Shown here: piece after piece, positions 12,162-30,065 of the stretch
Layout: every line of letters starts with the position of its first letter
Position numbering within the stretch: position 1 is the first letter of the stretch
Assembly (NCBI GenBank): GCA_018816735.1
Contig: JAHIVH010000129.1
Coordinates: 479-64,478, forward strand
DNA: 64,000 nucleotides
Direction: 5' to 3'
DNA from: Pseudomonadota bacterium
GTDB taxonomy: Bacteria > Desulfobacterota > Desulfobacteria > Desulfobacterales > JAHIVH01
Notes under the pieces: generated by a model
The model's input: the letters and a program-made list of their open reading frames with translations, nothing else
Databases searched by the model: none
What the model was told of the DNA's origin: nothing
Program-made: the position numbers and the translations under genes

Positions 12162-12608
12162 TTATGCTTCCAATGATCCCGGCATGTTTTCAACAAATGA
12201 GCGAATCTCGTCTCTTATCCGTCTGTAATGGCTCAAAATGACTGATTTGTCCGTTTCTCCTTCCGACAATTTGGGAGGATCGTCAAACCCCCGATGAAGC
12301 CTTTTTGTTCCTCTTGGGAAAAAAGGGCACGTTTCATTTGCGTGACCGCACAATGTCACCACATAATCAAATTGTATTTCTGCCACTTCATCGACACTTT
12401 TTGAGATATTTCCGGAAATATCAATCCCCAGTTCCAAAAGAACGTCTATGGCATTAGGGTCTATGCCTTTTGGGGCAGTTCCGGCTGAAAAGGCGCAAAA
12501 CAGGTCGCCTTTAAGTTTATGGGTCAATGCCTCGGCCATCTGGCTCCTGCAGGAATTGCCTGTGCATAAAAACAGAATATTAAAGTTTTTTTGATGTGTC
12601 ATTATCAT
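12162..12608 (-). CDS. arsC: Arsenate reductase, LMW-PTP / thioredoxin-coupled type
   Basis: 148 aa. P-loop 'LCTGNSCRSQMAEA' (C-X5-R-S), redox cysteine pair in 'TLCGHANETCP', and 'FDDP' Asp. Confidence 0.92.
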   Translation of the reverse strand: MIMTHQKNFNILFLCTGNSCRSQMAEALTHKLKGDLFCAFSAGTAPKGIDPNAIDVLLELGIDISGNISKSVDEVAEIQFDYVVTLCGHANETCPFFPRGTKRLHRGFDDPPKLSEGETDKSVILSHYRRIRDEIRSFVENMPGSLEA

Positions 12609-12645
12609 AATACTTCCTTATTCATTAAGCATTTTCATCTGTGTA

Positions 12646-13701
12646 TCAGATAATCACGTTAAAAATATATCCCACAATCAGGATGCCGCACGTCACAATG
12701 GCAATGAACACAGCGATCAGTCTGGGTTTTAAGACTTTTCTCAAAATAACCATTTCAGGAAGTGATAGCGCGATGACACTCATCATAAATGCCAATACGG
12801 TGCCTAGTGCCGCACCTTTACCGATAAGCGCCTCCACCACGGGAATGATTCCTGCGGCATTTGAATACATGGGAACCCCAATAATTACAGCCAGGGGCAC
12901 AGACCACCAGGCCGATTTCCCCATGATTGACGCCATCAAGTTTTCCGGCACGTATCCGTGAATCACTGCGCCTACGCCTATACCGAGAATGACATATAGC
13001 CAAACCCTTCCGATAATTTCTTTGACAGCGTCCCATCCATAGATAATTCGGTCAGACCAGGAGCGTTTTTCGTCCGGAATGGCATGGGGGCCGGCATGGG
13101 TGTCCATAACCCAGTCTTCAACGCCATTTTCAAGTTTAAGGCGTCCGATGACCCATCCGGCAAGGATGGCAATGGACAAACCCGTGCCCAGGTAAATTGC
13201 TGCGACTTTCCATCCCAGAAGAGCGTATAGAAGTCCCAATGCAATTTCATTGACCATGGGTGCTGCAATCAGGAAAGAAAATGTTACACCCAAAGGAACG
13301 CCTGCCGTGACAAAACCGATGAAAAGAGGTACGGCAGAGCATGAGCAGAACGGTGTGACAATCCCCAATAATGCGGCTAAAACGTTTCCTGCGAATTCGC
13401 TTCTTCCGGAAAGAACCGCACGTGTTTTTTCCGGCGTAAAAAAGCTTCGGATAATTCCCACGCCAAAAACGACCAGGAAAAGCAGCATCATCACTTTGGG
13501 GGTATCATAAAGAAAAAATTCTACCGCTTTTCCCAGATGGGAGTTTTCAGCAACGTTTAAAAGCCTGTAGGTTACCCATGAGGATAATTCCGGGAGCATA
13601 CCATATAAAATCCACCAGACATAGGTAAGCATGGCTCCGGAGATCAGGTAAAAAATAAATTTTTCGTTTTTGATGGTTTTTGTATTCATATAGCTTTTCA
13701 T
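12646..13701 (-). CDS. Predicted permease of the ArsP/DUF318 type (two-repeat membrane protein with a CxC motif)
   Basis: 351 aa and polytopic, with 'IVTPFCSCSAVPLFIGF'. Its position between arsR and arsC fits the organoarsenical permease family. The family assignment is from memory, not a search. Confidence 0.7.
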   Translation of the reverse strand: MKSYMNTKTIKNEKFIFYLISGAMLTYVWWILYGMLPELSSWVTYRLLNVAENSHLGKAVEFFLYDTPKVMMLLFLVVFGVGIIRSFFTPEKTRAVLSGRSEFAGNVLAALLGIVTPFCSCSAVPLFIGFVTAGVPLGVTFSFLIAAPMVNEIALGLLYALLGWKVAAIYLGTGLSIAILAGWVIGRLKLENGVEDWVMDTHAGPHAIPDEKRSWSDRIIYGWDAVKEIIGRVWLYVILGIGVGAVIHGYVPENLMASIMGKSAWWSVPLAVIIGVPMYSNAAGIIPVVEALIGKGAALGTVLAFMMSVIALSLPEMVILRKVLKPRLIAVFIAIVTCGILIVGYIFNVII

Positions 13702-13727
13702 AAATATATTAAAAAGAATTCTGTCAT

Positions 13728-14072
13728 TTACCGACCGCAGATATCCTCGCGGCGGACAGATGGCAGCTTATCGATCATGCCTTTTATTGCAGGATCGTCC
13801 TCAAGCCAGTGTTTCAGGTTACCCAGCAGATTGGCTGCATAGGGGCTGTCTTTCCCGTCTGAAAGATAATAATTGACCCACTTTTCCGTTTTCCGGGAAC
13901 ATACAAGGCCAGCTTCTTCCAGTATTTTTAAATGCTTGGAAACCGTAGGTTGCGCTATTCCTAAAACCTCGCGAAGCTCGCAAACACACATGGTCTTATG
14001 CTGAAGCAATTTAACAATTTTTGTCCTGTTTGGATCTGACAGGGCTTTTATCACTTTGGTGAACGCGTTCAT
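13728..14072 (-). CDS. arsR: ArsR/SmtB-family metalloregulator
   Basis: 'LSDPNRTKIVKLLQHKTMCVCELREVLGIAQPTVSKHLKILEEAGLV' (wHTH with a CVC sensing site). I placed the start at the ATG at 14072 (AGGA SD). The track ORF starts at 14114. Confidence 0.9.
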   Translation of the reverse strand: MNAFTKVIKALSDPNRTKIVKLLQHKTMCVCELREVLGIAQPTVSKHLKILEEAGLVCSRKTEKWVNYYLSDGKDSPYAANLLGNLKHWLEDDPAIKGMIDKLPSVRREDICGR

Positions 14073-14082
14073 TTTTATCCTC

Positions 14083-14102
14083 ATATTACTATGCGGTAAT
14101 AT
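14083..14102. promoter_or_regulatory. Candidate ArsR operator: 7-6-7 perfect inverted repeat ATATTAC-N6-GTAATAT
   Basis: Read directly: atattac (14083-14089), tatgcg, gtaatat (14096-14102). It lies 11 nt upstream of the arsR ATG. The background is AT-rich, so a chance occurrence is possible. Confidence 0.3.
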
Positions 14103-14250
14103 ATACCACCACATCTATTCGTCAAGGATAATATGTTTGATTCTTGGAAAAAAGTTGTTTTCCGGGTGGAAATTCGGCATATTGGTCCTTGAATATAGTT
14201 TATAGGCTTTTAAACGTATTTTTGTAATGATGTGAACAGGATGTTTGAAA

Positions 14251-14652
14251 ATGACCAAAAAGATCATGATTATTGATGATGAACCGGATATCCGGACGTA
14301 TCTGATGGCAATTTTAGAAGACAATGGATTTTCAGTATGCACGGTTTTGGATAATACGGAGGTCAAAAAAGGGGTGCTTTCAGAAAAGCCCGACCTCATT
14401 ATTCTTGATATCATGATGCCCCAGCGGTCCGGCATTTCTATATACAAGGAGCTTCGGACATGCAGTGCCTTAAATGCCATACCTGTGGCATTGATCAGTG
14501 GCATGATGCCGGAAAAGGATTTTATTGAAAAGGAGTTTCCCGCTCTGGTTGATGATAAAAGCGTATCCCCGCCAGACGGGTATATTGAAAAACCGGTCCA
14601 GGTGGAGAAGCTTGTTGCGCTGGTGACACAGCTTGTTGAAGAAAGAGGATAG
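14251..14652 (+). CDS. Stand-alone response-regulator receiver (CheY-like), RR1
   Basis: 'KIMIIDDEPDIR...KPDLIILDIMMPQRSG' with no output domain. ATG at 14251; the track uses the TTG at 14245. Confidence 0.9.
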   Translation: MTKKIMIIDDEPDIRTYLMAILEDNGFSVCTVLDNTEVKKGVLSEKPDLIILDIMMPQRSGISIYKELRTCSALNAIPVALISGMMPEKDFIEKEFPALVDDKSVSPPDGYIEKPVQVEKLVALVTQLVEERG

Positions 14653-14654
14653 TG

Positions 14655-16460
14655 ATGCCTGAAAAAATTAAATTAATGGACTGGATCAGGGAGCATCTGT
14701 TTAATGTGGTGCCCATGTCCATCGCGGTGATCGATAGAGACTTCAACCTTGTATATGCAAACAAGCCTTTTGAGGAGAAGTTTGGAAAGTGGAAAGGGAA
14801 AAAATGTTTTTCTGTTTATAAAAGCAGCACAACCATGTGTTTGAACTGCAAGGGCGCAGAAGCGTTTCAGGACGGAAAACCACGGGTAAACGAGGAGATC
14901 GGTTTTGATAAATCAGGAAAACTCACCAAATATATCAAACATACAATGCCGGTGGTTGATTCAGATGGAAGCATTCCGTTTCTGGTTGAAATGGCCACAG
15001 ATATCACAGAAGCTTCTATCATCAAAAAGGAATATCAACTTCTCTTTGACCAGGTACCCTGCAGTATCCTGGTTATTGACAGGAATTTCAGAATTGTACG
15101 AACCAATAAAAAAATTCGCGAAACATTTGGTGATCTGACAGGAAAGTATTGTTACAGCTCCCTTAAGGGTTTCAACGATAAATGTCTGGAATGCACGGCT
15201 AGAGATACGTTTTCAGACGGTGAAATGCATACCGGGAATCATGTGTGGCGAACAAAAGATGGTGAAGATATTCATTCTCACGTATCAACGGTGCCTCTTT
15301 TCAAGGAAGACGGGACATTTGACATGGTGATGGAAATGGCTGTGGATATTACCCATACACTTGAACTCGAGGATGAATTGAAAATCGCCTATTCTTTCAT
15401 GGAAACCATGATCGCCACGGCTATTGACGGTATCATCGCCATTGACATTGAAGGCGACATTATCATTTTTAACAAGGCTGCGAGAGATATTTTCAATATT
15501 CATGACAAGCGGAAAATGACAAAGATAGAGCTTGAGGTACTTCTTCCCGAAGGATTTATGGCTCAGGTGCTCTTGGGACCGGGACATGTTTATCTTCCTG
15601 AAGCATATGTCAAAACCATAGACGATGATAAAAAGCCGGTTCGGTTGTCAGGAAATAAAATTGAGTTTGGAGACGGAAAGTCCGGTATGGCATTTTCCAT
15701 ACAGGATTTAAGGGAGTTAAAGCGCCTTGAATCGGAAAAGCTCGAAGCCGAACGAATGGCTGCTGTGGGACAGACAGTGGCAGGCCTTGCCCATGGTGTC
15801 AAAAATCTGATAACCGGCCTTGAAGGCGGTATGTATATGATGAATTCCGGAATGAAGAAAGGCGATGTGGATAGAATTCAAAAAGGGCTTGAAATGCTCG
15901 ATAGAAATATCTTAAGGGTGTCGACTTTCGTAAAGGAATTTCTTAATTTTTCCAAAGGCCGTAAAATAAAAGTGGGTGAATGCGAACCTGGAAAAATTGC
16001 AAGAGACGTTGTGGAACTTTATGCCAGCCAGGCAGGAAAATTTTCTGTCGAGCTGATTTGCGAAACAGACGACAATATCATGCCTGCGCTTATGGATGGA
16101 GAAGGCATTCATGAATGTCTGACCAATCTCGTGGGAAACGCCATTGATGCGTGCCGGATGAGCGACAACCAAGGTGGCAATCATGTCTGGGTTAAAACTC
16201 ACGAAAAAGATGATGTGATTGTCTATGAAGTTGTTGACGATGGATGTGGAATGGATTACGAAGTCAAGAAAAAAGTCTTTACCAATTTTTTTACGACAAA
16301 AGGTCTGGGCGGAACTGGCATCGGCCTGTTAACGACCAAGAAAATCGTTCAGGAACATGGCGGGAAAATAGAACTTCAGTCTGAGGAGGGCAAGGGAACC
16401 ACTTTCAGGATTCGCCTGCCGAGAAACCGACTTCCCAAACCTGAATCAATTGATATTTGA
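14655..16460 (+). CDS. Soluble multi-PAS sensor histidine kinase with two C-x10-C-x2-C PAS domains (HK1)
   Basis: No TM segment. 'GKKCFSVYKSSTTMCLNCKG' and 'GKYCYSSLKGFNDKCLECTA'. H-box 'AGLAHGVKNLITGLEGG'. ATPase boxes 'NLVGNAIDA', 'DDGCGM' and 'GGTGIGL'. Confidence 0.9.
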   Translation: MPEKIKLMDWIREHLFNVVPMSIAVIDRDFNLVYANKPFEEKFGKWKGKKCFSVYKSSTTMCLNCKGAEAFQDGKPRVNEEIGFDKSGKLTKYIKHTMPVVDSDGSIPFLVEMATDITEASIIKKEYQLLFDQVPCSILVIDRNFRIVRTNKKIRETFGDLTGKYCYSSLKGFNDKCLECTARDTFSDGEMHTGNHVWRTKDGEDIHSHVSTVPLFKEDGTFDMVMEMAVDITHTLELEDELKIAYSFMETMIATAIDGIIAIDIEGDIIIFNKAARDIFNIHDKRKMTKIELEVLLPEGFMAQVLLGPGHVYLPEAYVKTIDDDKKPVRLSGNKIEFGDGKSGMAFSIQDLRELKRLESEKLEAERMAAVGQTVAGLAHGVKNLITGLEGGMYMMNSGMKKGDVDRIQKGLEMLDRNILRVSTFVKEFLNFSKGRKIKVGECEPGKIARDVVELYASQAGKFSVELICETDDNIMPALMDGEGIHECLTNLVGNAIDACRMSDNQGGNHVWVKTHEKDDVIVYEVVDDGCGMDYEVKKKVFTNFFTTKGLGGTGIGLLTTKKIVQEHGGKIELQSEEGKGTTFRIRLPRNRLPKPESIDI

Positions 16461-16488
16461 CAATATAACTGGTGAAATTACCTTACCA

Positions 16489-18243
16489 ATGAACGGGAAA
16501 AAAAATCTGGTATTATTCCTTGGAGACGGGGTAAATAATCTTCATCTGATTGCAGAGTGTCTGGCAAGAGAGATAAACAGGGAGCCTGTGGAATTTATCA
16601 GTGCATCCATGACGCCACCTCTGATTAATCCGTTAACCGCCAAGGTCATGCAGGCTTCGGGATTTGATATCTCAACGCTTCCTCTGCGTTCACTTCTTGA
16701 TGTGGAACCGTTCATGTTCGATTTGATTATCACCGTTGGAGATTTTGATCAGGATTGCAGACCCACGCTGCCGGGCATGCCGCCTCATTTTCACTGGGAT
16801 GTGCCTGATCCTCCGCCAGGTACAGATGTTGAAGAACTTTTCAGGTCCTTGAGAGAAGCAAAGGACATGATCCTCAATAAACTGGATACCATATTTTCTT
16901 CAGGACTATTGACGGCCCTTTTTGTAACACGACGAAAACTTGAAGTGATTATCGATAACCTCCTGGATGGTGTTATGGCGCATACCACCAATCGACGGAT
17001 TTTCTTTTTCAATAAGGCTGCGGAGAATATTACCGGATACAGACGGGAAGATATTCTGGGGAAAGACTGCCATGATGTTTTTCCTGGCAGGTTTTGCGGT
17101 GGGGATTGCGAATTCTGCGAAAGTGCAGAGAAAAATATGAAAGGTCATGTCATGAAAAAGGAAATCTTTTTCAGACGTCTGGAGGGAGATGAACGTGTTC
17201 TTAAAATGTCCATCATGCCGCTTTCAGATGAAGAGGGAAAGGATATTGGCGCACTTCTTTCATTCAGGGATGATACTGAACTGGATCAACTGAAAAGACG
17301 GCTAAGACATCATCATACGCTTGGAAATCTTGTGGGGAAAGACCCTAAAACACTGGAGCTTTTTGATCAGATCAGAGAAGTGAGCTCGGTAATGGTTCCG
17401 GTTTTGGTTGAAGGGGAGAGTGGCACAGGAAAAGAACTGGTGGCAAATGCCATTCATGATATTGGTCCCAGGACCGGGAAGCCTTTTGTTGCCATCAATT
17501 GCGGCGCATTGCCGGAAGGGATTCTCGAAAGTGAACTTTTTGGCCATGTCAGTGGTGCGTTTACAGGTGCCGTTCAGAACAGGAAAGGCCGATTCGAACT
17601 GGCTGACGGGGGAACGATTTTTCTGGACGAAGTGGGTGAACTGACGTCTGCCATGCAGGTTAAGCTGCTTCGCGTGCTTCAGGAAAAGAGATTTGAAAGG
17701 GTTGGGGGAGAAAAGACCATTCAGGTCGACGTCAGAGTGATTAGCGCTACAAATCAGAATTTAAAAGAGCTGATTGACAAAAAAATGTTCAGACGGGATC
17801 TGTATTACAGACTGTGCGTCATGCCTATTTCTCTTTTGCCTTTAAGGGAAAGACGCCTTGACATACCCACGCTGGTGGAACATTTTCTTGAAGTGATTGC
17901 AAGTGAGGTCAAGCGGTCTGTCCTGGTACCGTCCAATGATGTGATGGATGCATTGTCCCGTTATGACTGGCCGGGAAACGTAAGAGAGCTTCGAAACGCA
18001 ATCGAATACACGTATGTAAAATGCAGAACCGGAAAAATTATCCTGGACCACCTGCCTCCGGAGATTGTGAATTTCAAACAGAAAATAAAAGTTAAACCTG
18101 GCCCCTCTCTCAAGCACAACAAGGAGGAAGTGATCCTTGCGCTGTCACAATCTGAAGGCAACAGAAAAGAAGCTGCCAAAATTCTTGGCATCGGCCGAGC
18201 GACACTTTACCGGTATCTGGATGTTTATGAGCTTAATTCCTGA
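16489..18243 (+). CDS. Sigma-54-dependent transcriptional activator (bEBP): degenerate ArsC/LMW-PTP-like domain, Cys-rich PAS, AAA+, Fis-type HTH; no receiver domain
   Basis: AAA+ 'GESGTGKE', 'GAFTGA', 'ESELFGH', 'WPGNVREL'. C-terminal HTH 'NRKEAAKILGIGRATLYRYL'. PAS 'GKDCHDVFPGRFCGGDCEFCES'. The N-terminal ~130 aa is colinear with the ArsC at 12162-12608. The start is either the ATG at 16489 or the TTG at 16450. Confidence 0.9.
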   Translation: MNGKKNLVLFLGDGVNNLHLIAECLAREINREPVEFISASMTPPLINPLTAKVMQASGFDISTLPLRSLLDVEPFMFDLIITVGDFDQDCRPTLPGMPPHFHWDVPDPPPGTDVEELFRSLREAKDMILNKLDTIFSSGLLTALFVTRRKLEVIIDNLLDGVMAHTTNRRIFFFNKAAENITGYRREDILGKDCHDVFPGRFCGGDCEFCESAEKNMKGHVMKKEIFFRRLEGDERVLKMSIMPLSDEEGKDIGALLSFRDDTELDQLKRRLRHHHTLGNLVGKDPKTLELFDQIREVSSVMVPVLVEGESGTGKELVANAIHDIGPRTGKPFVAINCGALPEGILESELFGHVSGAFTGAVQNRKGRFELADGGTIFLDEVGELTSAMQVKLLRVLQEKRFERVGGEKTIQVDVRVISATNQNLKELIDKKMFRRDLYYRLCVMPISLLPLRERRLDIPTLVEHFLEVIASEVKRSVLVPSNDVMDALSRYDWPGNVRELRNAIEYTYVKCRTGKIILDHLPPEIVNFKQKIKVKPGPSLKHNKEEVILALSQSEGNRKEAAKILGIGRATLYRYLDVYELNS

Positions 18244-18289
18244 ATGGGGATCAAGGGAAGGGCTATGATGTCTACTACAGGGGTTTCCA

Positions 18290-19237
18290 ATGGATAAACC
18301 GCTACCCATTTTATACAGAAACGAATACAATATGGGCTTTATGGGCGTTCAGAGACTCCACCCCTTTGATTCGGAAAAATTTGGTAAAATCAAACGTTAT
18401 CTGATGACCCATGCAGGCCTTGAACCCTCATCTTTTGTTCGACCGGATCAGGCAATCAGTGAAGCGGAACTTCTCATCGTTCATACAAAAGCGTATCTTG
18501 AGTCTTTGAAGAAGTCTTCGACTGTGGCAAGAATTGCAGAGCTGAAACTCCTTGCTTTTTCGCCCAATCTCTTACTCCGGAAATTTTTTCTGGCACCAAT
18601 GAGATATGCAACTTTTGGGACCATTAAGGCTTCCGAGCTTGCGCTTGAAAGAGGTTGGGCCATTAATCTTTCAGGCGGGTATCATCACGCAAAACGCGTT
18701 GATGGGGACGGCTTCTGTTTTTATGCCGACATCCCCCTTGCCATCCGGAAATTGAGAGAGAAGAATAATTCCCTTAAAGCGTTGGTCATAGACCTTGATG
18801 CCCATCAGGGAAACGGTATTGAAGATTATTTTAAGGATGACAAAAATAGTTTTATCATGGATGTGTATAATCGGGAAATCTACCCTGAAGATGAGCCCAT
18901 GAAAGCACATATTGATTTTCATTTTCCGGTTGCCTCAGGCACCGGAGACAACGACTACCTCTCTCTACTTGAAACAAATGTCCCCCATGCCATTCGATCA
19001 TCAGGCCCGGACATCATTTTTTATAATGCAGGCACAGATATTCTTGATGGTGATCCACTGGGAAAGATGAACATTACGGATAACGGCATTGTCAAACGGG
19101 ATGAAATCGTTTTCAAGGCAGCCATGGACGCTAAAATCCCCATCGTCATGGTGTTGTCCGGCGGGTATACCAAACGTTCCGGTTTTGTGATCGGCAGATC
19201 GGTCACGAATCTTTTAAAGACCGTATTGCCGCGATAG
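18290..19237 (+). CDS. Zn-dependent deacetylase/deacylase of the histone deacetylase family, class IV (HDAC11-like)
   Basis: 'WAINLSGGYHHAKRVDGDGFCFYADI', 'VIDLDAHQGNG', 'YNAGTDILDGDPLG', 'VLSGGYTK'. All catalytic and Zn motifs are present. It is colinear end-to-end with my recollection of human HDAC11. Confidence 0.88.
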   Translation: MDKPLPILYRNEYNMGFMGVQRLHPFDSEKFGKIKRYLMTHAGLEPSSFVRPDQAISEAELLIVHTKAYLESLKKSSTVARIAELKLLAFSPNLLLRKFFLAPMRYATFGTIKASELALERGWAINLSGGYHHAKRVDGDGFCFYADIPLAIRKLREKNNSLKALVIDLDAHQGNGIEDYFKDDKNSFIMDVYNREIYPEDEPMKAHIDFHFPVASGTGDNDYLSLLETNVPHAIRSSGPDIIFYNAGTDILDGDPLGKMNITDNGIVKRDEIVFKAAMDAKIPIVMVLSGGYTKRSGFVIGRSVTNLLKTVLPR

Positions 19238-19440
19238 ACAGCACCTTTCTGTTTGTGAAAGAAAAGATTTTTGAGAGCATATTATTTAATATCTATTTTA
19301 TTATTCATTTTTATATTGCATCAATCAAGGATTATTGTCATTTATAAACGATTTGCCCATCATTATCATTTATCCATTTCATTCCTTCGTCTCACATTAA
19401 ATTCCCTTATAAGAATAATAATTAAAACTGTTTCGTGTCC

Positions 19441-19657
19441 CGTGTCTCAAGTTCGTTTCAGGTCACTTCTAAAGACATGCCATAATTAACGCATCTTCTG
19501 ATTAATTCGTAATTTCAGCCAACTATAAAAAGCGATCCATTGATCAGGACGCGGATTCCTCTGAATTATCCTGAGACACGATAAATATTCAACATCATAA
19601 AAATATATAACTAATTGTAATTATTTATATATTTTAATTTAATTTATTAGAGACACG
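19441..19657. repeat. Three copies of (T)GAGACACG in the sigma-54 promoter upstream region: candidate enhancer (UAS) sites
   Basis: cgtgtctca at 19441-19449 (minus orientation), tgagacacg at 19572-19580, and gagacacg at 19650-19657 abutting the -24 element. They are embedded in very AT-rich DNA. Confidence 0.45.
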
Positions 19658-19659
19658 TC

Positions 19660-19675
19660 TGGCACGAAATCTGCT
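19660..19675 (+). promoter_or_regulatory. Sigma-54 (-24/-12) promoter TGGCACgaaatCTGCt
   Basis: TGGCAC-N5-CTGC has the correct GG-N10-GC spacing, 46 nt upstream of the ATG at 19721. A bEBP gene lies 1.4 kb upstream. Confidence 0.6.
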
Positions 19676-19720
19676 CTTAACTCTATCGGCACATCTGAGG
19701 TTCAAAAAAAGGAAAACGCG

Positions 19721-19945
19721 ATGGATGGGAAAACCACAACAGACCTTGCGAACAAACATTTAAAAATGGTGATCGACCTTTGCTACGAGATGCTGGAATT
19801 GGCAGATCATGGTGATAAATTCCGGCTGGATACCGGTTGTGGCGTCGTATATGGGACTTTGCGGGATGTGGCGTATAAGGTGAGAAAACTCGCTGAGAAA
19901 GAACTTGTGCAGCATGGTACGGAAGAGAGTTACCAAGGAGAATAG
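19721..19945 (+). CDS. Small hypothetical protein (74 aa), first ORF behind the sigma-54 promoter
   Basis: ATG preceded by 'AAAGGAAAACGCG'. Helical-looking, non-low-complexity sequence 'LKMVIDLCYEMLELADHGDKFRLDTGCGVVYGTLRDVAYKVRKLAEKEL'. No family recognised. Confidence 0.55.
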   Translation: MDGKTTTDLANKHLKMVIDLCYEMLELADHGDKFRLDTGCGVVYGTLRDVAYKVRKLAEKELVQHGTEESYQGE

Positions 19946-20046
19946 ACAGCGTACATACCTTGAATAAGGTTTATTTTTTAACCATAATTAACCGGAAGAG
20001 GCGGGATGCAAAGGTTTCCTCTTCCTAAAAAAAGGAAAAACTGAAG

Positions 20047-20430
20047 ATGAGCGAAAAGAAAAAAATTTTGGTAGTGGATGATGAAAAAGACGTCCTGACC
20101 TATCTGACCACACTTCTTGAAGACAACGGCTATGAAACTGTTTCTGCCGGAGATGGACTGAAAGGGTTTGATCTTGCCAAGAGCGAAAAACCGGATCTGA
20201 TCACCCTGGATATCACCATGCCGGATCAATCCGGTGTAAGGACATATCGCTATTATAAGGAAGATGAAGAATTAAAAGATATACCTGTCATCATTGTCAC
20301 GGCTATTGGCGATTCCATGAGAAGTTTTTTGAAGAAACTGGCTGGTTTTAAGGAACCGGAAGGATTTATGAACAAACCGATAGATGAAGCCGAACTTTTG
20401 AAAATGGTTTCGGATCTTTTAAATAAATAA
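20047..20430 (+). CDS. Stand-alone response-regulator receiver, RR2
   Basis: 'KILVVDDEKDV...KPDLITLDITMPDQSG...IPVIIVTA', 127 aa, no output domain. Confidence 0.9.
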   Translation: MSEKKKILVVDDEKDVLTYLTTLLEDNGYETVSAGDGLKGFDLAKSEKPDLITLDITMPDQSGVRTYRYYKEDEELKDIPVIIVTAIGDSMRSFLKKLAGFKEPEGFMNKPIDEAELLKMVSDLLNK

Positions 20431-20488
20431 GCCTTTGTTGTCAGAAGAAGATACCCATTCTGTCAATGAGTGATTAAAGGAGAATGAA

Positions 20489-21427
20489 ATGTCTCAATTT
20501 GTGTATGTTGTTGCGTATCTGTCGATCATTGTTTTTTTTGTTGCGGTCGTAAAAAAGATCAAGAATTATCTGGACAAACCCATTCATGTCAGGTGGGAGC
20601 TTTATCCGGTTGCCCATGAGGGCGGTGGGCGAGATCAATATGGTGGAAGCTATCTGGAAGACGTGGGCTGGTGGGGAAAAGAACGGGACGTGTCTATGAT
20701 CGGTGAGTTAAAGGTCATGATTCCCGAAATCCTTTTGCTTAAAGCAGTATGGGAACATAATCGTCCCCTGTGGTATGCGACTTACCCCTTTCATCTTGGA
20801 CTTTATCTGATTGTCGGGTTTATAGGAACCCTTCTGGTTACATCCGTTTCAGGACTGATCGGCCTTGAACATGCGTTTTATATGTTACCTGTGTCTGCGT
20901 TGACCAATTTGCTTGGCCCTGCCGGATTCATTTTATGCATCGCAGGGGCTTTGGGCCTTATTTATAAAAGGATGACCGATCCGGGGTTAAAAAATTATTC
21001 AAGCCCCGGGCATTTCTTCAATCTGATGCTCTTTATTGTGACCATGGGTGTGGCAACACTTACCTGGCTTTTTGTCGATCCTTCATTTCAACTTACCAGA
21101 CAGTTTGTGTCCAATCTGATCAGTTTCAACATAGCGCCGATTGACAGTTCATTGTTTATGGTTCAGGTGATTTTGGGCGTTCTGACCCTGGCATACATTC
21201 CTCTGACGCATATGTCCCATTTTTTTATGAAGTATTTTCTCTATCACGATATCAGGTGGGGTGACGAGCCAAATATCAATACCCCGAAAACCGATGCAAA
21301 GATAGGTATTGTGTTGAATTATCCCGTAAGCTGGTCTGCGTCTCACATTGCAGGACACGGCAAGGAAACCTGGGCTGAAGTCGCCACTTTTAACCCCGCA
21401 GCAGAACCGGAAGAAGGAAAGGAGTAA
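20489..21427 (+). CDS. NarI/DsrM-like integral-membrane cytochrome b (quinol-interacting subunit)
   Basis: 312 aa with multiple TM helices carrying conserved His ('YPFHLGLY', 'IPLTHMSHFFMKYFLYHD'). It is paired 3 nt upstream of an HdrD/DsrK-like gene. Confidence 0.7.
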   Translation: MSQFVYVVAYLSIIVFFVAVVKKIKNYLDKPIHVRWELYPVAHEGGGRDQYGGSYLEDVGWWGKERDVSMIGELKVMIPEILLLKAVWEHNRPLWYATYPFHLGLYLIVGFIGTLLVTSVSGLIGLEHAFYMLPVSALTNLLGPAGFILCIAGALGLIYKRMTDPGLKNYSSPGHFFNLMLFIVTMGVATLTWLFVDPSFQLTRQFVSNLISFNIAPIDSSLFMVQVILGVLTLAYIPLTHMSHFFMKYFLYHDIRWGDEPNINTPKTDAKIGIVLNYPVSWSASHIAGHGKETWAEVATFNPAAEPEEGKE

Positions 21428-21430
21428 AAA

Positions 21431-23026
21431 ATGAGCAATAAAAATGTGAATATCAAAGATATCGGCAAAGATACAAAAAAACTGGCAAGTGTCGCCAATG
21501 AAGATCTAATGCCTCTCCCCGGATGGGATGCAGAAGAAAATGAATGGGCGGAAATTCCTGCAGAGACAAAGGGAAAATATGCCTGTATTCTGGATGATGT
21601 CTGTATACTGCCCATACCCATGCCCAAAACCGTCAAGGAAGAGGAAGCGCTCGTCAACACGTTTATTGATGGCATGAGAAAGCTTTTTACCAAGGAAAAC
21701 AACTGGACATTTCTGGCCATGCTCGATACATCCATGGAACATTGTGCCAAATGCAATACCTGCTCAGAAGCCTGCCATCTCTACGAAGCAACCGGTGGGC
21801 ATGAAATGTACCGTCCGAATTTCCGTTCGGAGATTTTCAGAAGAATATATAAAAAATATGTTAAAAAAGAACCCTTCGCCAAATGGCGAAACGGAGATGT
21901 CGATCTGAACTGGCGTACGATCGCGAGACTTGGAGAGCTGGCCTATCGGTGTAATGTCTGCAGGAGGTGCGCTCAAACTTGCCCGATTGGTGTGGATAAT
22001 GCGCTGATTGCCCGTGAAATCCGAAAGATTTTCAGTCAGGAATTGGGGATTTCGCCCCCTGAACTTCATGAAAAAGGCTCCATGTATCAGCTTAAAACCG
22101 GTTCTTCCACCCAGATGACCAAGCTGGTTGTCAAGGATAACGTGGAATTTATTGATGAGGACTTTTCCGAAGAAACGGGTTTTGAATTCAAAACCCCCTG
22201 GGATGTGGAAGGTGCGGATATTCTTTTGATTCATAATGCCGGTGAGATCATGGCCTGGCCGGAGAATATCGCCGCGTTTTCTATTATTTTTGAGGCCGCC
22301 GGTCTGTCATGGACGCTTTCAAGTGACCTGGCAGCCTATGACAGCATTAACTACGGTGTGTTTTATGACGATGTCCAGTTTGCCAGAACAGCCATTCTTC
22401 AGGCCCAGGCAGCCAAAAAACTCGGTGTGAAAAGAATCGTTCTTGGAGAGTGTGGGCACGCGCATAAAGCATTGACAGTTATTGCAGACAGGGTTCTTCC
22501 TGAACCGTTGAAAGTGCCCAGAGAAAGTTGCTTTCCACTTTTAAGGGATATTGTCATGTCAGGTAAAATCAAGTTCGATCCTGAGCGCAACAATTTTCCG
22601 GTCACCCTTCATGATCCGTGCAATGTGACACGCCTGATGGGAATCATCAAACCGCAGCGTGAAATCATGGCAAAACTCTGTCCCCAATTCCGTGAAATGA
22701 ATCCTCATGGGCCGCATAATTATTGCTGCGGTGGGGGAAGCGGATATGCCATTATGTCCAGAAACAATATTCCGGAATGGCGATATAAAATTACGGGCAG
22801 GAAAAAAATGGAGCAGATCTTTAATGCCTTTTCAGATTGCAGAGGGCCGGAAACAAAAAAATACGTCTGTGCCCCCTGTTCAAATTGCAAAGGGCAGCTG
22901 AGAGATCTTTTTGAAAGGTATGAAATGCTCGAAAAGGAAAATATGACTTACAGCGGGGTTGTCGAACTGATTGTAAATGCAATGGTTGATGTTGAGCCGG
23001 GTTTTATCAAGTGGGGAGAAGAGTAG
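21431..23026 (+). CDS. HdrD/DsrK-like iron-sulfur protein with CCG domains
   Basis: Two ferredoxin motifs 'CAKCNTCSEACHLY' and 'CNVCRRCAQTCPIG'. CCG-domain signatures 'HDPCN' and 'NYCCGGGSG...CAPCSNCKGQL'. Confidence 0.8.
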   Translation: MSNKNVNIKDIGKDTKKLASVANEDLMPLPGWDAEENEWAEIPAETKGKYACILDDVCILPIPMPKTVKEEEALVNTFIDGMRKLFTKENNWTFLAMLDTSMEHCAKCNTCSEACHLYEATGGHEMYRPNFRSEIFRRIYKKYVKKEPFAKWRNGDVDLNWRTIARLGELAYRCNVCRRCAQTCPIGVDNALIAREIRKIFSQELGISPPELHEKGSMYQLKTGSSTQMTKLVVKDNVEFIDEDFSEETGFEFKTPWDVEGADILLIHNAGEIMAWPENIAAFSIIFEAAGLSWTLSSDLAAYDSINYGVFYDDVQFARTAILQAQAAKKLGVKRIVLGECGHAHKALTVIADRVLPEPLKVPRESCFPLLRDIVMSGKIKFDPERNNFPVTLHDPCNVTRLMGIIKPQREIMAKLCPQFREMNPHGPHNYCCGGGSGYAIMSRNNIPEWRYKITGRKKMEQIFNAFSDCRGPETKKYVCAPCSNCKGQLRDLFERYEMLEKENMTYSGVVELIVNAMVDVEPGFIKWGEE

Positions 23027-23167
23027 GCCCCAAAAAGTCAGTCCTCACCTCTTGCTTAAAGGACGAATAAACCTGAAACAGGCGGCCTTTTCGTATGTGT
23101 GGTATCGCTTTGATCAATACCCCTCCCGCATACGCCAAGGCCGCCAAAATAAAAAAGGACTTATAAA

Positions 23168-23695
23168 ATGGCACACGCATCTGAAAAGAAAATTCTGGTT
23201 GTTGATGATGAACCGGATGTCAGGCATTTTCTCGCCGCATGCCTGGAAGACGCAGGGTTCAATGTGGAAACTGCTGTGGATGGTGTTGACGCCCTTGAAA
23301 AGGTTAAAACAAATACACCTGATCTGATAACTCTTGACATGGTCATGCCCAGAAGGTCAGGCATTAATTTCCTGCGAAAATTAAGAAAAGAGAAAAAGGA
23401 ATGGGCCAATATTCCGGTAATTGTCATCACTGCCCATGCCAGAGATGAATTTGGAAGTGAAGACATTCAGGAATTCCAAGCTTTTGCAGCACGTCATCGA
23501 CCACGATGCACGCTTGAAAAACCGATTACCCCATCGAGTCTTGTCAAGGCCATCAGCGAGATTTTAGACGTTGAAACCGATATGCTGGAAAAAAGCCGGA
23601 AAGAGGGAGATGACAATCGTGAAGACCTGATCCGGATGATACAACAGACCGATCCGGAAACATTGAAAAAGATTCAGACGATGTTGAACAAGTAG
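23168..23695 (+). CDS. Response-regulator receiver with a ~50-aa acidic/helical C-terminal tail, RR3
   Basis: 'KILVVDDEPDVR...TPDLITLDMVMPRRSG...IPVIVITA', then 'DVETDMLEKSRKEGDDNREDLIRMIQQTDPETLKKIQTMLNK'. Confidence 0.88.
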   Translation: MAHASEKKILVVDDEPDVRHFLAACLEDAGFNVETAVDGVDALEKVKTNTPDLITLDMVMPRRSGINFLRKLRKEKKEWANIPVIVITAHARDEFGSEDIQEFQAFAARHRPRCTLEKPITPSSLVKAISEILDVETDMLEKSRKEGDDNREDLIRMIQQTDPETLKKIQTMLNK

Positions 23696-23794
23696 GTTTT
23701 ATTCAATTACCCGTAATTGATTCTGACCGTAATTGGGAAACGTGGAGCCTTGTCCTTTGAGGATAAATAGAATGTCAACTGTCAGGTTTTTTCT

Positions 23795-24853
23795 ATGAAT
23801 CAAAATTTTCAAGTCATTTCGTCTTCTCCGGACCAGCTTTATCAGATGATTATTGATCTTCTTCCGTGCTATATTTCCATTCAGAATAATGACCTGGAAA
23901 TTCTCTATACCAATAAATCGTTCTTGAATGATTTTGGTGAGGCCACAGGCCGGAAATGTCATGATGTTCTCAAATGCTCCGCATTTATGTGCGGGGAATG
24001 CCCGGTTAAAAAATCGTTTGAAGACAATGCCATTCATTTTGGCGAGGATTCCGTACTCACAAGAGAGGGGGCACCGATTCAACTTCTGGTATACGCCGTT
24101 CCGATACCTGCCGGAAGGGACCGATCGGTGATAGAGTTTTCCATTGATATTTCAAAAATTAAAAATACCCAGAAAGAACTGGCGCTTCTGGGGCGATCAG
24201 TAGCCCTTATCTCTCATGGCATCAAAAATTTGCTGGAAGGGCTTCATGGCGGGGAGTATGTGGTTGATGAAGGATTAAGAGAGGAAAACTGGCCGCTTGT
24301 TGAAAAAGGGTGGAAAGTCGTAAAAAATAACATCATTGATATTTCAATGATTGCTCAAAATATTCTTTATTCTTCCAAAAAGAAGGCATTGACCATCGAA
24401 AAGGTAAAGCCAGGCGAGATGGTCAAACGCGTTGTCAGCATGCTTAATGAAAAAGCCCTTTCAATGGGCGTTTCTCTGCGAGCCGAGGTCAATCCCTATC
24501 TGCCTGAGGCCAGGCTCGACCAGTTCACCATAAAAAAAATGTTGATTAACCTGATCTCAAATGCACTTGAAGCCTGTGAAAGGGATAGGGAAAAAAACAA
24601 TCATTTTGTGGTGGCAAGGGCACTTGCCTATAACGAGCTTCAGTATAAATTTGAAGTTGAAGACAATGGTATCGGCATGGATGAAGACATGCGAAAAAAA
24701 ATTTTCCAGGAGTTTTTTTCAACCCGGGGGACGAGTGGCACCGGTTTGGGCCTGTCGGTTGTTGAAACCATTGTAAAAGAACACCAGGGCAAGATTGAAG
24801 TTGAATCCGTGCCCGGCCAAAAAAGTCTTTTTCGAATTATTTTTACCTATTAA
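23795..24853 (+). CDS. Soluble PAS histidine kinase with a 4-Cys motif (HK2), paralogous to HK1
   Basis: 'GRKCHDVLKCSAFMCGECPV'. H-box 'ALISHGIKNLLEGLHGG'. 'NLISNALEA', 'DNGIGM' and 'GTGLGL'. No TM segment. Confidence 0.9.
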   Translation: MNQNFQVISSSPDQLYQMIIDLLPCYISIQNNDLEILYTNKSFLNDFGEATGRKCHDVLKCSAFMCGECPVKKSFEDNAIHFGEDSVLTREGAPIQLLVYAVPIPAGRDRSVIEFSIDISKIKNTQKELALLGRSVALISHGIKNLLEGLHGGEYVVDEGLREENWPLVEKGWKVVKNNIIDISMIAQNILYSSKKKALTIEKVKPGEMVKRVVSMLNEKALSMGVSLRAEVNPYLPEARLDQFTIKKMLINLISNALEACERDREKNNHFVVARALAYNELQYKFEVEDNGIGMDEDMRKKIFQEFFSTRGTSGTGLGLSVVETIVKEHQGKIEVESVPGQKSLFRIIFTY

Positions 24854-24868
24854 AGAGGAGGAAGATGC

Positions 24869-25255
24869 ATGGATAGAAAAAAAATCGTTATCATTGATGA
24901 TAATAAGGATTATACATTCACGATGGGTGTATTTCTTGAAAAAAACGGCTTTGAAGTTCACACTGCCAATAATGGTGAAAAAGGCATGGAAATGATCGAA
25001 AAGGAAAAACCGGATCTGGTTCTTCTGGATGTGATGATGGAAACGCTTTTTTCCGGGTTTGAAGTGGGAAGAAAGATTCGTCAGCATCCGGAAATGAAAG
25101 AAATCCCGATTATTGGCATATCCGGCATGCATAATGAAATTAAGGTGAAGTTTGAAAAAGAGACGGACGAAGATTATTTCCAGCCGGATGAATTTTTTGA
25201 AAAACCGGCGGATAAAGATGCTGTTTTAAACAAGATCAATCAGTTGATCGGTTAG
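24869..25255 (+). CDS. Stand-alone response-regulator receiver, RR4
   Basis: 'KIVIIDDNKD...KPDLVLLDVMMETLFSG...IPIIGISG', 128 aa. Confidence 0.88.
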   Translation: MDRKKIVIIDDNKDYTFTMGVFLEKNGFEVHTANNGEKGMEMIEKEKPDLVLLDVMMETLFSGFEVGRKIRQHPEMKEIPIIGISGMHNEIKVKFEKETDEDYFQPDEFFEKPADKDAVLNKINQLIG

Positions 25256-25617
25256 ATAAAATATGATCATCACGGATATACCGTCTTTAAAAAAAAGATG
25301 TGAAATAATTATATCCGTGATATATGTAATGCTAAATTCAGTTTGCTCACCACAGAAGCCTCGGATCTGTTTTCATGGCGAAATACGATACGCTTCCTTC
25401 TTCAGACCGCCATATTTTGAATGCTTTTTGACTTAGGTCAATGTTTTTGACAGACATTTCGGTTATACGTTTGGCATCATATGTTAGCACTTTTGATGGA
25501 TGTTATCGTTAGATGTGTTGGATTCTGAGATAAGGAACAACGATCATTTATAAAAATGGGCAGGTTTTCCAAAAAGCACCTGCTTTTAGGGAATCATGCC
25601 CGAGAGCCGGGCTCAAT

Positions 25618-26994
25618 ATGGGATTCAGATTAAAAGGATTTCCGGGAAAAGGCACATTTAAAAGAGGTGTCCATCCACCGGAACGAAAAAATTTATCACA
25701 AGATATATCCATAGAAGTCATTCCGCCACCTGAGAAACTTCTGATACCCTTGCTTCAGAATATTGGGGAGGCCTGTAAAGCCGTTATCGAACCAAAACAG
25801 GAAGTCGTATTCGGGGAAAAAATAGCAGATGCCGATGGCTTTATCTCTGCCCCTCTTCATGCCCCTCTTTCCGGAAAAATCGCAAAGTTTGCCATGACAA
25901 CGCTTCCCAATGGCAGACATGTGAAAGCCATCCAGATAGATGCCCATAAGGAGCAGGTTTCAGAAGATGCGTTATGGCATGATATGTTTTTCAGAGATTG
26001 GCCCAAAGATGTTTACAGCCTGTTTTCTTCGGAAGAAATTTCAAAAAGAATCAGGAACGCCGGCATTGTAGGCCTTGGTGGCGCTGCATTCCCTACCCAT
26101 GTAAAAATCAAGTATAATCAGAAAAAGTCAATCGATGCGCTGCTCGTAAATGGTTGCGAATGCGAGCCCTATCTGACAACAGATTATCGTGTGATGGTTG
26201 AAGCACCGGAGCCCGTCATTACAGGTGCCCTGTTTGCCGCCATGGCGACGAATGCCGGTCAGATTGTCGTTTGCATTGAAGATAATAAACCGCTTGCCGT
26301 TAAAGCCATTTCAAATGCAGCAAAAGGGACCGGAATAAAGGTGGCTGTGCTTAAAACAAAATACCCGCAAGGCAGTGAACGGCATATGATAAAAGCGGTT
26401 ATGAATCGCGTCATCCCTTTAGGAGGGCTTCCGGGAGATGTGGGCGTAGTCGTCAGCAACGTGGCGACGATTGCTGCGGTTGCCCGGGCGGTGCTTTATG
26501 AAAAACCCCTTACGCACAGGGTCGTGTGCGTGACAGGTGGCGGCATAAAAAGACCGGCCAATCTTCTTGTGCCTCTGGGTATGAGCTACAGGGCACTGAT
26601 CGATTATTGCGGCGGCATGACGGAAAATGCTGCAAGAATTTTGTCAGGTGGTCCCATGATGGGATTTTCGTTTACCGATCTTGATATGCCCGTGACTAAA
26701 GGTACAAGCGGCATCACCGTTTTAACCCATGATGAAATAAAACGGGACAAAGAAACCGCGTGTCTTCGATGTGGCAGATGCGTTGATGTCTGCCCAATGG
26801 CTCTGGTCCCGGCACGGCTCGCCCTTGCCGCCAGAAAAAGAGATGTTGAAATGGCAGAGAAATATAACATCATGGGATGCCTTGAAACCGGATGCTGCGG
26901 ATATGTCTGCCCGGCGAACATTCCGCTCATTCAATTAATTCGTGCAGGAAAAGCCATGGTGATGACAAACCGGAAGCTTCAATCGAAAAATTAA
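25618..26994 (+). CDS. rnfC: Rnf complex subunit C
   Basis: 458 aa with 'GLGGAAFPTHVK', 'SGGPMMG', 4Fe-4S motif 'CLRCGRCVDVCP' and 'CCGYVCPANIP'. Confidence 0.93.
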   Translation: MGFRLKGFPGKGTFKRGVHPPERKNLSQDISIEVIPPPEKLLIPLLQNIGEACKAVIEPKQEVVFGEKIADADGFISAPLHAPLSGKIAKFAMTTLPNGRHVKAIQIDAHKEQVSEDALWHDMFFRDWPKDVYSLFSSEEISKRIRNAGIVGLGGAAFPTHVKIKYNQKKSIDALLVNGCECEPYLTTDYRVMVEAPEPVITGALFAAMATNAGQIVVCIEDNKPLAVKAISNAAKGTGIKVAVLKTKYPQGSERHMIKAVMNRVIPLGGLPGDVGVVVSNVATIAAVARAVLYEKPLTHRVVCVTGGGIKRPANLLVPLGMSYRALIDYCGGMTENAARILSGGPMMGFSFTDLDMPVTKGTSGITVLTHDEIKRDKETACLRCGRCVDVCPMALVPARLALAARKRDVEMAEKYNIMGCLETGCCGYVCPANIPLIQLIRAGKAMVMTNRKLQSKN

Positions 26995-27015
26995 CCAAAA
27001 GACATTGAAATTGTT

Positions 27016-28011: not shown

Positions 28012-28023
28012 TCCAGGAGGAAC

Positions 28024-30064: not shown

Positions 30065-30065
30065 T

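Follow-up and report, generated by a model that had tools for sequence, protein, structure and literature searches.

Why should the genes for a membrane-bound redox complex lie among two histidine kinases, four receivers and a transcriptional activator, a signalling set with no obvious output? The arrangement is found in an 11-kb island (positions 14251-25255) of a 64,000-nucleotide stretch of contig JAHIVH010000129.1 from a Desulfobacterales bacterium, referred to below as the window. A first-pass annotation of this DNA had treated the signalling genes and the central cytochrome b/CCG pair as one functional unit, and the synteny described below bears this out. We propose, with a probability of roughly 0.6, that the island is a redox-gated, sigma-54-dependent expression unit for DsrM2K2, a paralog of DsrMK, the membrane complex that carries out the last step of sulfite reduction.

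Organization of the island

Gene content and order were read from a listing of open reading frames (ORFs), from Pfam scans and from the public gene calls of the source contig, which were concordant. All genes lie on the plus strand. The island opens with RR1 (14251-14652), a receiver-only response regulator (PF00072, 67 bits), followed by HK1 (14652-16460), a soluble histidine kinase in which Pfam recognizes three PAS domains and HATPase_c. The third gene (16450-18243) encodes a bacterial enhancer-binding protein (bEBP), that is, a sigma-54 activator with PAS, Sigma54_activat (234 bits) and HTH_8 domains and no REC domain; the public gene call puts its start at 16489 instead of 16450. A PF00850 deacetylase gene (18290-19237, 189.6 bits) is separated by a 484-nt gap from orf74 (19721-19945), which has no Pfam or NCBIfam match. 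Then come RR2 (20047-20430; receiver-only, PF00072, 76.7 bits), dsrM2 (20489-21427) for a NarI/HdrE-like membrane subunit, dsrK2 (21431-23026) for an HdrD/DsrK-like CCG iron-sulfur subunit (Fer4_8 and CCG domains), and RR3 (23168-23695; PF00072, 88 bits), a receiver with a conserved C-terminal tail of ~45 residues. HK2 (23795-24853), a soluble kinase with one Cys-rich PAS domain (Pfam), and the receiver-only RR4 (24869-25255; PF00072, 69 bits) complete the island. The genes, their order, the single strand and the sigma-54 promoter are as the first-pass annotation had placed them. Its count of four output-less receivers, two kinases without a membrane segment and an activator without a receiver is likewise confirmed by Pfam and by hydrophobicity, with no segment at the membrane threshold in HK1, HK2, the bEBP or RR1-RR4; only the RR3 tail has to be added.

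For synteny, the island proteins were compared by tblastn with 80 related loci, designated here by L numbers, and with five further contigs looked up by protein, one of which, without an L number, is called the unnumbered locus. Twenty-two loci are Desulfobacterales-like, and 18 of these have enough sequence for counting orf74 and the flanking receivers. L013 and L014 come from Desulfobacula metagenome-assembled genomes.

The membrane pair is DsrM2K2

The “DsrMK-like” pair is neither an orphan nor a new module: it is a paralog for which the literature already has a name, dsrM2K2. This paralog was noted upstream of dsrAB in Acidobacteriota by Hausmann et al. 2018, who cite Pereira 2011 for it, and Neukirchen et al. 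2023 report a DsrMK-only clade in Deltaproteobacteria that additionally have DsrMKJOP, a clade with which the pair is also in agreement. In the Acidobacteriota loci L072, L077 and L080 the pair is flanked by aprBA-qmoAB on one side and by a sirohaem gene with dsrAB on the other, canonical dsrMKJ being found downstream, and the window proteins are 63-64% (K2) and 40-41% (M2) identical to these pairs. We assign the window pair to dsrM2K2 because it is orthologous to this Acidobacteriota pair upstream of dsrAB and beside canonical dsrMKJ. The relationship to DsrMK in the first-pass annotation therefore stands; novelty of the pair is not supported.

Profile scores are in line with paralogy. For DsrK2 of the window the nearest NCBIfam model is DsrK (NF045796) at 315 bits, below the cut-off of 400, and the TmcB and HmcF models are further away at 192 each. 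DsrM2 of the window has no NCBIfam match at E ≤ 0.01, the canonical DsrM model (NF038037, cytob_DsrM, cut-off 300) included. The same holds in L080, where K2 reaches 325.7 on the DsrK model compared with 739.8 for the co-resident canonical DsrK, and where M2 gives no match to the canonical DsrM model at E ≤ 1e-10 compared with 474.6 for the canonical DsrM; the canonical DsrK, DsrM and DsrJ of this locus (740, 475 and 152) are all above their cut-offs. DsrK2 is only ~28% identical to co-resident canonical DsrK. The conservation of DsrK2 is exceptional: among the best 120 of 4,716 database matches the identity to it is 70-89%, and across 80 genomes from Desulfobacterales, Desulfovibrionaceae, Acidobacteriota, Zixibacteria, Sumerlaeota, Planctomycetales and Gemmatimonadota it is 63-88%, the closest of these being an uncultured Desulfocicer (88%). 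No dsrJ, dsrO or dsrP was found after dsrK2, where RR3, HK2 and RR4 lie instead, and the gene set is not that of a DsrMKJOP complex.

Thirteen cysteines of DsrK2 are invariant in 19 sequences (C105, C108, C111, C115, C174, C177, C180, C184, C397, C432, C433, C483 and C486) and cover two CxxCxxCxxxC ferredoxin motifs and a CCG site (PF13183 and PF02754), as in HdrD. DsrM2 has five to six hydrophobic segments and matches PF02665 with 27.9 bits (cut-off 22.9). Its near-invariant histidines in 67 sequences are 33, 43, 102, 244, 253 and 286, of which only H102 is clearly inside a predicted helix.

DsrK2 residues 1-70 (21431-21640) form a strongly conserved N-terminal extension beyond the DsrK model. 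In DsrM2 (20489-20790; residues 31-62 and about 100) a loop between the first two hydrophobic segments is near-invariant (P31, H33, R35, W36, E37, Y39, P40, H43, E44, G52, G53, E57, W61 and W62). Across phyla K2, with 63-88% identity, is conserved much more strongly than M2, with about 40%. Sequence searches of the PDB gave only a weak match for K2, to a mycobacterial iron-sulfur reductase, and none for M2.

In L080 (580-7674 and 9066-11605; also in L072 and L077) dsrM2K2 is divergent beside aprBA-qmoAB; no qmoC-like gene was seen adjoining qmoB in L080, and a CxxCxxCC-domain gene lies between aprA and qmoA. There dsrM2K2 could serve QmoAB as a membrane partner.

Conservation of the gene cluster

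Of the 18 Desulfobacterales-like loci, 16 have a receiver gene directly 3' of dsrK2, as do 4 of 9 Acidobacteriota loci; among the Desulfobacterales-like loci orf74 is found upstream in 14/18 and a receiver gene before dsrM2 in 12/18. For the full set of 22, the counts are 12 with a bEBP ortholog within 8 kb, 10 with a kinase of the HK1/HK2 type, and two (L004 and L008) with rnfC within 10 kb. The conserved unit consists of (RR1)-HK1-bEBP, the sigma-54 promoter with its GTCTCA boxes, and orf74-RR2-dsrM2-dsrK2-RR3, with HK2-RR4 only in some loci. More than 20 independent genomes from two phyla have this core set, its genes being arranged in at least four different orders. The RR1-HK1-bEBP trio is upstream in L002, L003, L004, L006, L082 and L083, downstream in L007, L012 and L019, and divergent in L086; RR1 adjoins the HK1 ortholog in L002, L003, L004, L007, L012, L019, L086 and the unnumbered locus. 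HK2-RR4 follow RR3 in L003, L004 and the unnumbered locus, and related kinases occur in L022 and in the Acidobacterial L079, which has the order bEBP-orf74-CCG-RR-HK-RR-M-K. The first-pass annotation had made its hypothesis depend on synteny of the whole block in relatives. With the comparison now made, (RR1)-HK1-bEBP/orf74-RR2-M-K-RR3, with or without HK2-RR4, is syntenic, and the entire 11 kb is not.

Other lineages surround the same pair with other genes. Among 43 Desulfovibrionaceae-type loci, receivers accompany dsrM2K2 in just 1/41; the pair often follows a small cytochrome c gene, hmcE, hmcF and two Rrf2-family genes, and genes reading as [NiFe] hydrogenase and cytochrome b lie 3' of it; hmcE and hmcF pass the NCBIfam thresholds of their families. 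In Zixibacteria-like loci the order is Rrf2-M-K. As a means of regulating dsrM2K2 the signalling set is therefore robust, yet confined to certain lineages.

Individual loci of this comparison show additional features. In gut Desulfovibrio (L050:3498-15623, with L045, L054 and L062 alike) a small cytochrome c, hmcE, hmcF, two Rrf2-family genes and dsrM2K2 are followed by an apparent Tat-exported [NiFe] hydrogenase small subunit, a large subunit and a cytochrome b, an order that suggests an H2-quinone-DsrM2K2 route. On a 2.7-Mb contig, L083 has transposase-like genes on both sides (2754-3703 and 13384-15837) of HK1-bEBP-orf-RR2-M-K-RR3, an arrangement that may point to mobility of the unit as a whole. 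In the Zixibacteria-like L071 (4774-11602) a different sigma-54 activator comes after Rrf2-M-K, together with a run of ten genes of small to medium size.

The sigma-54 promoter and its boxes

The sigma-54 promoter TGGCACGAAATCTGCT (GG-N10-GC) is located at 19660-19675 on the plus strand, 45 nt before orf74, and has one mismatch to TGGCAC-N5-TTGC. Its GG and GC are 10 nt apart, it lies upstream of the gene and in the gene's orientation, and its position is conserved among orthologs, since 12 further loci, L079 and L086 among them, have a GG-N10-GC element 26-62 nt before their orf74 ortholog. Simple scans for sigma-70 promoters and for terminators performed no better than on shuffled controls.

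Upstream of the promoter, on the same strand, are two candidate enhancer boxes. The distal box CGTGTCTCA (19441-19449) is preceded by a CGTGTC half-site, and the proximal box TGAGACACG (19572-19580) is situated about 100 nt upstream of the -24 element; together they form a perfect 9-nt inverted repeat, 122 nt apart. A third box, GAGACACG (19650-19657, plus strand), abuts the promoter. Three of the four copies of GAGACACG in the window fall inside the gap between the deacetylase gene and orf74, where 0.49 would be expected. Counterpart boxes are present at about -145 and -280 in L002, L003, L005, L006, L016, L020 and L086, the typical ortholog layout being CGTGTCTC(A) in tandem near -280 and GAGACACG in inverted orientation near -145. 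Over 16 loci, the 330 nt upstream of orf74 contain 64 copies of GTCTC/GAGAC, compared with 5.9 expected from the remainder of the loci. The helix-turn-helix (HTH) segment of the bEBP, GNRKEAAK-LG-GRATLYRY, is kept in loci that have the boxes; in L079, where there are no boxes, it is changed.

The leaders vary in one respect. Those of L002, L003, L004, L005, L016, L082, L083 and L086 have an extra tGTCTCa box between promoter and orf74 start; the window leader is without it and has the third box abutting the -24 element instead.

The activator

The bEBP has the features of a sigma-54 activator, with PF00158 (234 bits), a PF02954 HTH and the GESGTGKE and GAFTGA motifs, and its orthologs in 13 loci are 57-72% identical. 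Receiver-less PAS activators are ordinary in sulfate reducers: in D. vulgaris 15 of 37 enhancer-binding proteins are without a receiver, and six of those have PAS domains (PMC4641369). The PAS domain of the window protein carries the cysteine motif C207-x-D209-x6-C216-x3-C220-x2-C223 (17068-17118, plus strand), kept in 13/14 orthologs. In OrpR, the residues C52, D/E54, C61 and C65 bind a redox-sensitive [4Fe-4S] cluster, whose presence in the protein was established by UV-visible and electron paramagnetic resonance spectroscopy, and the cluster cysteines are needed for redox control (PMC8359166). The spacing of C207, D209, C216 and C220 is identical to that of these ligands (C-x-(D/E)-x6-C-x3-C). 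By analogy, a redox-sensitive [4Fe-4S] cluster is most likely present in the bEBP PAS domain; low potential would keep the protein active, and oxidation would turn it off. A redox signal as the input, as the first-pass annotation had supposed, is most likely, given this motif and the Cys-rich PAS domains of both kinases.

OrpR (DVU2106 of Desulfovibrio vulgaris Hildenborough) is similar in being a receiver-less PAS-AAA+-HTH activator encoded beside its target promoter. The comparison is one of motif. OrpR binds GGGCGYRTTTTGCGCCC and controls the orp operons, whereas the window bEBP is predicted to recognize GTCTCA boxes and to have a respiratory target; it also has a fourth cysteine, an N-terminal ArsC-like domain, and a co-encoded kinase and receiver.

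Proposed mechanism

How might these components work together? The RR1-HK1-bEBP operon upstream would supply the regulators. The bEBP is expected to function as a one-component, OrpR-like activator that recognizes the GTCTCA/TGAGAC boxes (about -100 and -230) and switches on the promoter at 19660, which would drive orf74-RR2-dsrM2-dsrK2-RR3 and probably read on into HK2-RR4. DsrMK is a menaquinol:DsrC-trisulfide (thiol/disulfide) oxidoreductase module; its paralog DsrM2K2 would take electrons from the quinol pool through DsrM2 and relay them via the two predicted [4Fe-4S] clusters of DsrK2 to the CCG site, where a cytoplasmic disulfide or trisulfide may be reduced; DsrC is the obvious candidate substrate. 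HK1 and HK2 could sense a related cue through their Cys-rich PAS domains and phosphorylate the output-less receivers, which may act by protein contact with the bEBP (possibly its ArsC-like domain), with the kinases or with DsrK2. The receivers would then have a role parallel to that of Rrf1 after hmcEF and of DVU0259-type receivers beside tmc, and orf74 would most likely be a small feedback partner of the activator.

Several observations weigh against this proposal. We infer the assignment of the bEBP to the promoter from adjacency and from the conserved boxes. The ArsC-like domain is unexplained and is missing from the L086 ortholog. The kinase PAS motif, C-x10-C-x2-C, is unlike that of OrpR and could bind zinc, and four receivers and two kinases exceed the needs of a simple OrpR-type switch. 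In L004 rnfC begins 24 nt after RR4, so that in this genome, at least, rnf might be co-transcribed. Finally, Desulfovibrionaceae and Zixibacteria-like dsrM2K2 is accompanied by Rrf2-type regulators instead of the signalling set, which is therefore lineage-specific and not intrinsic to DsrM2K2.

Comparison with related systems

The DsrMK(JOP) complex, like the window pair, combines a NarI/HdrE-like membrane subunit with a following HdrD-like subunit that bears two ferredoxin-type clusters and a single CCG site; it differs in that the window pair scores below the DsrK and DsrM equivalog cut-offs and lacks dsrJOP. Compared with dsrM2K2 as described, the window pair is placed under a sigma-54 promoter and flanked by receivers, for which we found no description.

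The hmcABCDEF-rrf1-rrf2 operon of D. vulgaris is among the closest precedents, with a cytochrome b gene and a CCG gene followed by a gene for a receiver-only protein, which has an effect on how the complex is expressed; Rrf1 and Rrf2, encoded after hmcE and hmcF, both affect hmc expression. Hmc, however, includes multihaem cytochrome subunits in the periplasm, has no known dependence on sigma-54, and is without bEBP, orf74 or kinases. The tmc/hmc region lies amid several receivers and kinases in D. vulgaris and Desulfococcus multivorans (PMC5109826). The tmc region (with DVU0258-DVU0262) encodes a Tmc-type cytochrome b/CCG complex among receivers and kinases, the window receivers are closest to the DVU0259 family, and a tmcCBA-like set is found inside the present cluster in L003, L004 and the unnumbered locus. 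It differs from the window in that the target here is dsrM2K2 and not tmc, the window receivers are below the family cut-off, and the type of activator and the promoter are defined here.

Receiver and kinase clusters beside Hmc- or Tmc-type complexes are on record already (hmc-rrf1/rrf2; tmc regions), and the claim of the first-pass annotation that the type of circuit is undescribed is not supported. The literature searched contained no description of dsrM2K2 with a sigma-54 promoter, enhancer boxes and an OrpR-type/pseudo-ArsC activator. What appears to be new, to judge by this literature, is that association, the orf74 family, and the near-universal receiver gene after dsrK2 in Desulfobacterales.

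Kinases, receivers and orf74

Both kinases have HATPase_c domains (91 and 77 bits) and AHGVKN/SHGIKN boxes; the HisKA match in Pfam is weak (E 0.013). The first two PAS domains of HK1 contain C-x10-C-x2-C (C52/C63/C66 and C167/C178/C181), the H-box histidine is His381 in AGLAHGVKN, and the cysteine motifs and the H-box are kept in seven orthologs. HK2 has the PAS cysteines C55, C61, C66 and C69, of the conserved C-x10/11-C-x2-C motif type, and a conserved H-box with His141 (SHGIKN). RR1-RR4 match PF00072 with 67-88 bits and retain the DD / D / T-or-S / K phospho-acceptor residues. Their best NCBIfam match is DVU0259_DivK (NF045717) with 90.7, 114.2, 88.1 and 70.8 bits, respectively, all below the cut-off of 160; it is also the best match, below cut-off, of the Acidobacterial receivers 3' of K2. 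The receiver gene that names this family, DVU0259 of D. vulgaris, lies beside the tmc operon. A literature search on DVU0259 gave no match, and one on DsrK-like proteins nothing of relevance.

Could RR2 and RR3 be phosphorylation-dependent subunits or allosteric effectors of DsrM2K2, so that the kinases gate electron flow post-translationally and the bEBP sets the expression level only? The position of a receiver directly 3' of K2 in 16/18 Desulfobacterales-like loci, and in 4/9 Acidobacteriota loci without a nearby bEBP, speaks for such a role, as do the membership of the Acidobacterial receivers in the same DVU0259-like group and the strongly conserved K2 N-terminal extension of ~70 residues outside the DsrK model. 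We nevertheless consider it unlikely: the dsrM2K2 of gut Desulfovibrio, of Zixibacteria-like loci and of many Acidobacteriota is without a receiver, from which it follows that the complex works without one, and Rrf1, the only tested precedent, acts on hmc expression.

More tentatively, the cluster may represent a hitherto unrecognized mode of control over a respiratory module. Output-less receivers, phosphorylated by the Fe-S/Cys-PAS kinases, might dock on the pseudo-ArsC domain or on DsrK2, and one redox signal would then set both transcription and activity of a quinol:DsrC-type reductase. If this doubtful but attractive scheme were true, dsrM2K2 would gain a conditional role, for example as a DsrJOP-independent route only at very low redox potential.

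The orf74 family comprises 85 homologs, all annotated as hypothetical and none with a Pfam domain. Seventeen residues are invariant and are concentrated at the helix-turn-helix tip. The AlphaFold2 model (predicted local distance difference test score of 88.3) is an antiparallel helical hairpin of two helices, and a fold search with it returned generic helical hairpins only (E > 0.1). A role as an Hpt or DHp-like phosphotransfer protein was considered and dropped, the helices having no conserved histidine. The gene is present in loci with the sigma-54/bEBP arrangement or just its promoter; the Rrf2-type dsrM2K2 loci all lack it. Because orf74 tracks this arrangement and not dsrM2K2 itself, its distribution suggests a partner of the activator, either a feedback inhibitor or a co-factor, rather than a subunit of the complex.

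The rnf genes and the phosphorelay model

The first-pass annotation had explained the island as a branched phosphorelay that reads a quinol/thiol-disulfide module and tunes energy-conservation operons, including rnfCDGEAB (25618-30974, plus strand; Pfam). This model accounts for the many receivers and two kinases without an obvious output and for the single strand with rnf directly next, and rnfC also follows the module in L004, with the 24-nt gap mentioned above, and in L008. A relay of this kind would call for an Hpt or Spo0B-like component, and Pfam found no such protein or domain among the island proteins; the lack of a conserved helix histidine in orf74 removes the remaining candidate.

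The link to rnf fares no better. L004 and L008 are the only related loci in which rnf adjoins the module (2/22), and unrelated genes lie downstream in L082, L083, L086 and the unnumbered locus. The 362-nt rnfC leader contains no GTCTCA box and no correctly spaced sigma-54 promoter, its sole TGGCA-type match (TGGCAT...GC) having a 12-nt instead of a 10-nt spacing. Immediately 3' of the RR4 stop codon, at a distance of 300 nt from rnfC, there is a hairpin (25269-25321, plus strand) with 12-nt perfect arms, ATCACGGATATA and TATATCCGTGAT, and a 29-nt spacer. It has a folding energy of -21.5 kcal/mol (z -4.3), and 0/200 shuffled sequences folded equally well. The hairpin likely marks a transcript boundary before rnf, as judged from the sequence; the repeat could equally be a protein-binding palindrome for rnf control. 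Tuning of Rnf by the island therefore has no sequence support, and we regard the phosphorelay model as decidedly unlikely.

The deacetylase gene, which the first-pass annotation had counted as a member of the island, has no tblastn match in any of the 80 related loci and is a passenger specific to the window. In L003, L004 and the unnumbered locus its slot is occupied by tmcC, a tmcB/hmcF-like gene and a gene for a tmcA-like cytochrome. The positions beside rnf and the deacetylase gene are local accidents outside the conserved unit.

The ArsC-like domain and the arsenic hypothesis

Ahead of the PAS domain the bEBP has an N-terminal domain of ~140 residues (16495-16923, plus strand) that hhalign relates to ArsC and low-molecular-weight (LMW) phosphatases. 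Pfam gave no match to this domain in the window protein; PF01451 matches 7 of 10 bEBP orthologs. A profile of the ortholog N-termini aligns with the window's own ArsC with an hhalign probability of 98.9% (E 1.7e-17), and that ArsC retrieves bEBP N-termini directly as a tblastn query. The domain is homologous over about 130 residues to thioredoxin-coupled ArsC/LMW phosphatases (PF01451). A database search with the N-terminal 168 residues returned a single, uninformative match, and an N-terminal ArsC/LMW-phosphatase domain on such an activator was described nowhere in the literature searched.

The catalytic C-x5-R(S/T) loop reads GDGVNNLH in the window protein. Catalytic Cys and Arg are gone in all Desulfobacterales orthologs, and an intact loop is found only in the Acidobacterial L079, which retains CTGNGGRS and a C-x6-C pair. 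Because the window protein has other residues in place of the P-loop Cys, the Arg and the first Cys of the C82/C89-type pair, the domain reads as a pseudo-enzyme: a pseudo-ArsC input (sensor) or docking domain, as far as sequence allows, with catalysis very unlikely.

These relationships raise the question of whether the island could serve a response to arsenic, metalloid or thiol stress. The ArsC-derived domain and the PAS cysteines would then sense As(III)/As(V) or thiol-reactive compounds, and DsrM2K2 would re-reduce a thioredoxin/ArsC-type disulfide with quinol electrons. The homology of the bEBP N-terminus to the neighbouring ArsC, the full C-x5-R loop and C-x6-C pair of the L079 ortholog, and the adjacency of ArsR and a PF03773 permease to the module in four different arrangements are consistent with this idea, and three or four clustered cysteines might bind As(III). 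However, the catalytic residues are lost throughout Desulfobacterales and the domain is missing in L086, the PAS motif is an exact match to the Fe-S ligands of OrpR, the Acidobacteriota dsrM2K2 within an apr-qmo-dsr cluster points to sulfur respiration, and most related loci are without ars genes nearby. An arsenic response is, on this evidence, very unlikely.

A merely fortuitous juxtaposition of two-component genes and a redox pair could be imagined, as sulfate reducers are rich in kinase, receiver and EBP genes (PMC4641369; PMC4046663), but it is hardly credible for an orthologous set that recurs in more than 20 genomes, at least four orders and two phyla with conserved promoter and boxes.

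Implications for dsrM2K2

dsrM2K2 is widespread in sulfate and sulfite reducers and encodes one of the most conserved proteins of these gene neighbourhoods. The conserved sigma-54 circuit offers an experimental handle on it through the promoter, the enhancer boxes and the activator, and predicts for dsrM2K2 the role of an alternative to DsrMKJOP that is redox-gated and expressed only under certain conditions. With the cluster, OrpR is joined by another candidate Fe-S PAS activator, the second of its kind, and a new pseudo-ArsC input domain and the orf74 family come to light; on Rnf regulation the present evidence says nothing.

Minor features of the locus

On its 5' side the island is bordered by a divergent arsR/ArsP_1/LMWPc cluster (Pfam). 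An ArsR-family regulator and a PF03773 (ArsP_1) permease adjoin the module in the window (12162-14114, minus strand), in L082 (240-4112), in L003 (14164-15324) and in the unnumbered locus, being divergent upstream in two of these loci and on the same strand downstream in the other two. A small Thioredoxin_3 gene stands beside the regulator and permease genes in the window and in L082. The adjacency is not simply inherited synteny, because the window proteins share only about 27-31% identity with those of L003.

Two further structures lie within the predicted dsrM2K2 transcript. The inverted repeat GGAAGAGG...CCTCTTCC (19994-20028), between orf74 and RR2, has a z of -0.4 relative to shuffled sequences and is probably not significant. 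Between dsrK2 and RR3, on the plus strand, is a GC-rich hairpin (23081-23145; -32.1 kcal/mol, z -3.3) without a U-tract. Strong, non-homologous hairpins occupy the same gap in L001, L007, L014, L082 and L083, the other gaps being too short, and the dsrK2-RR3 hairpin may set the ratio of complex to receiver.

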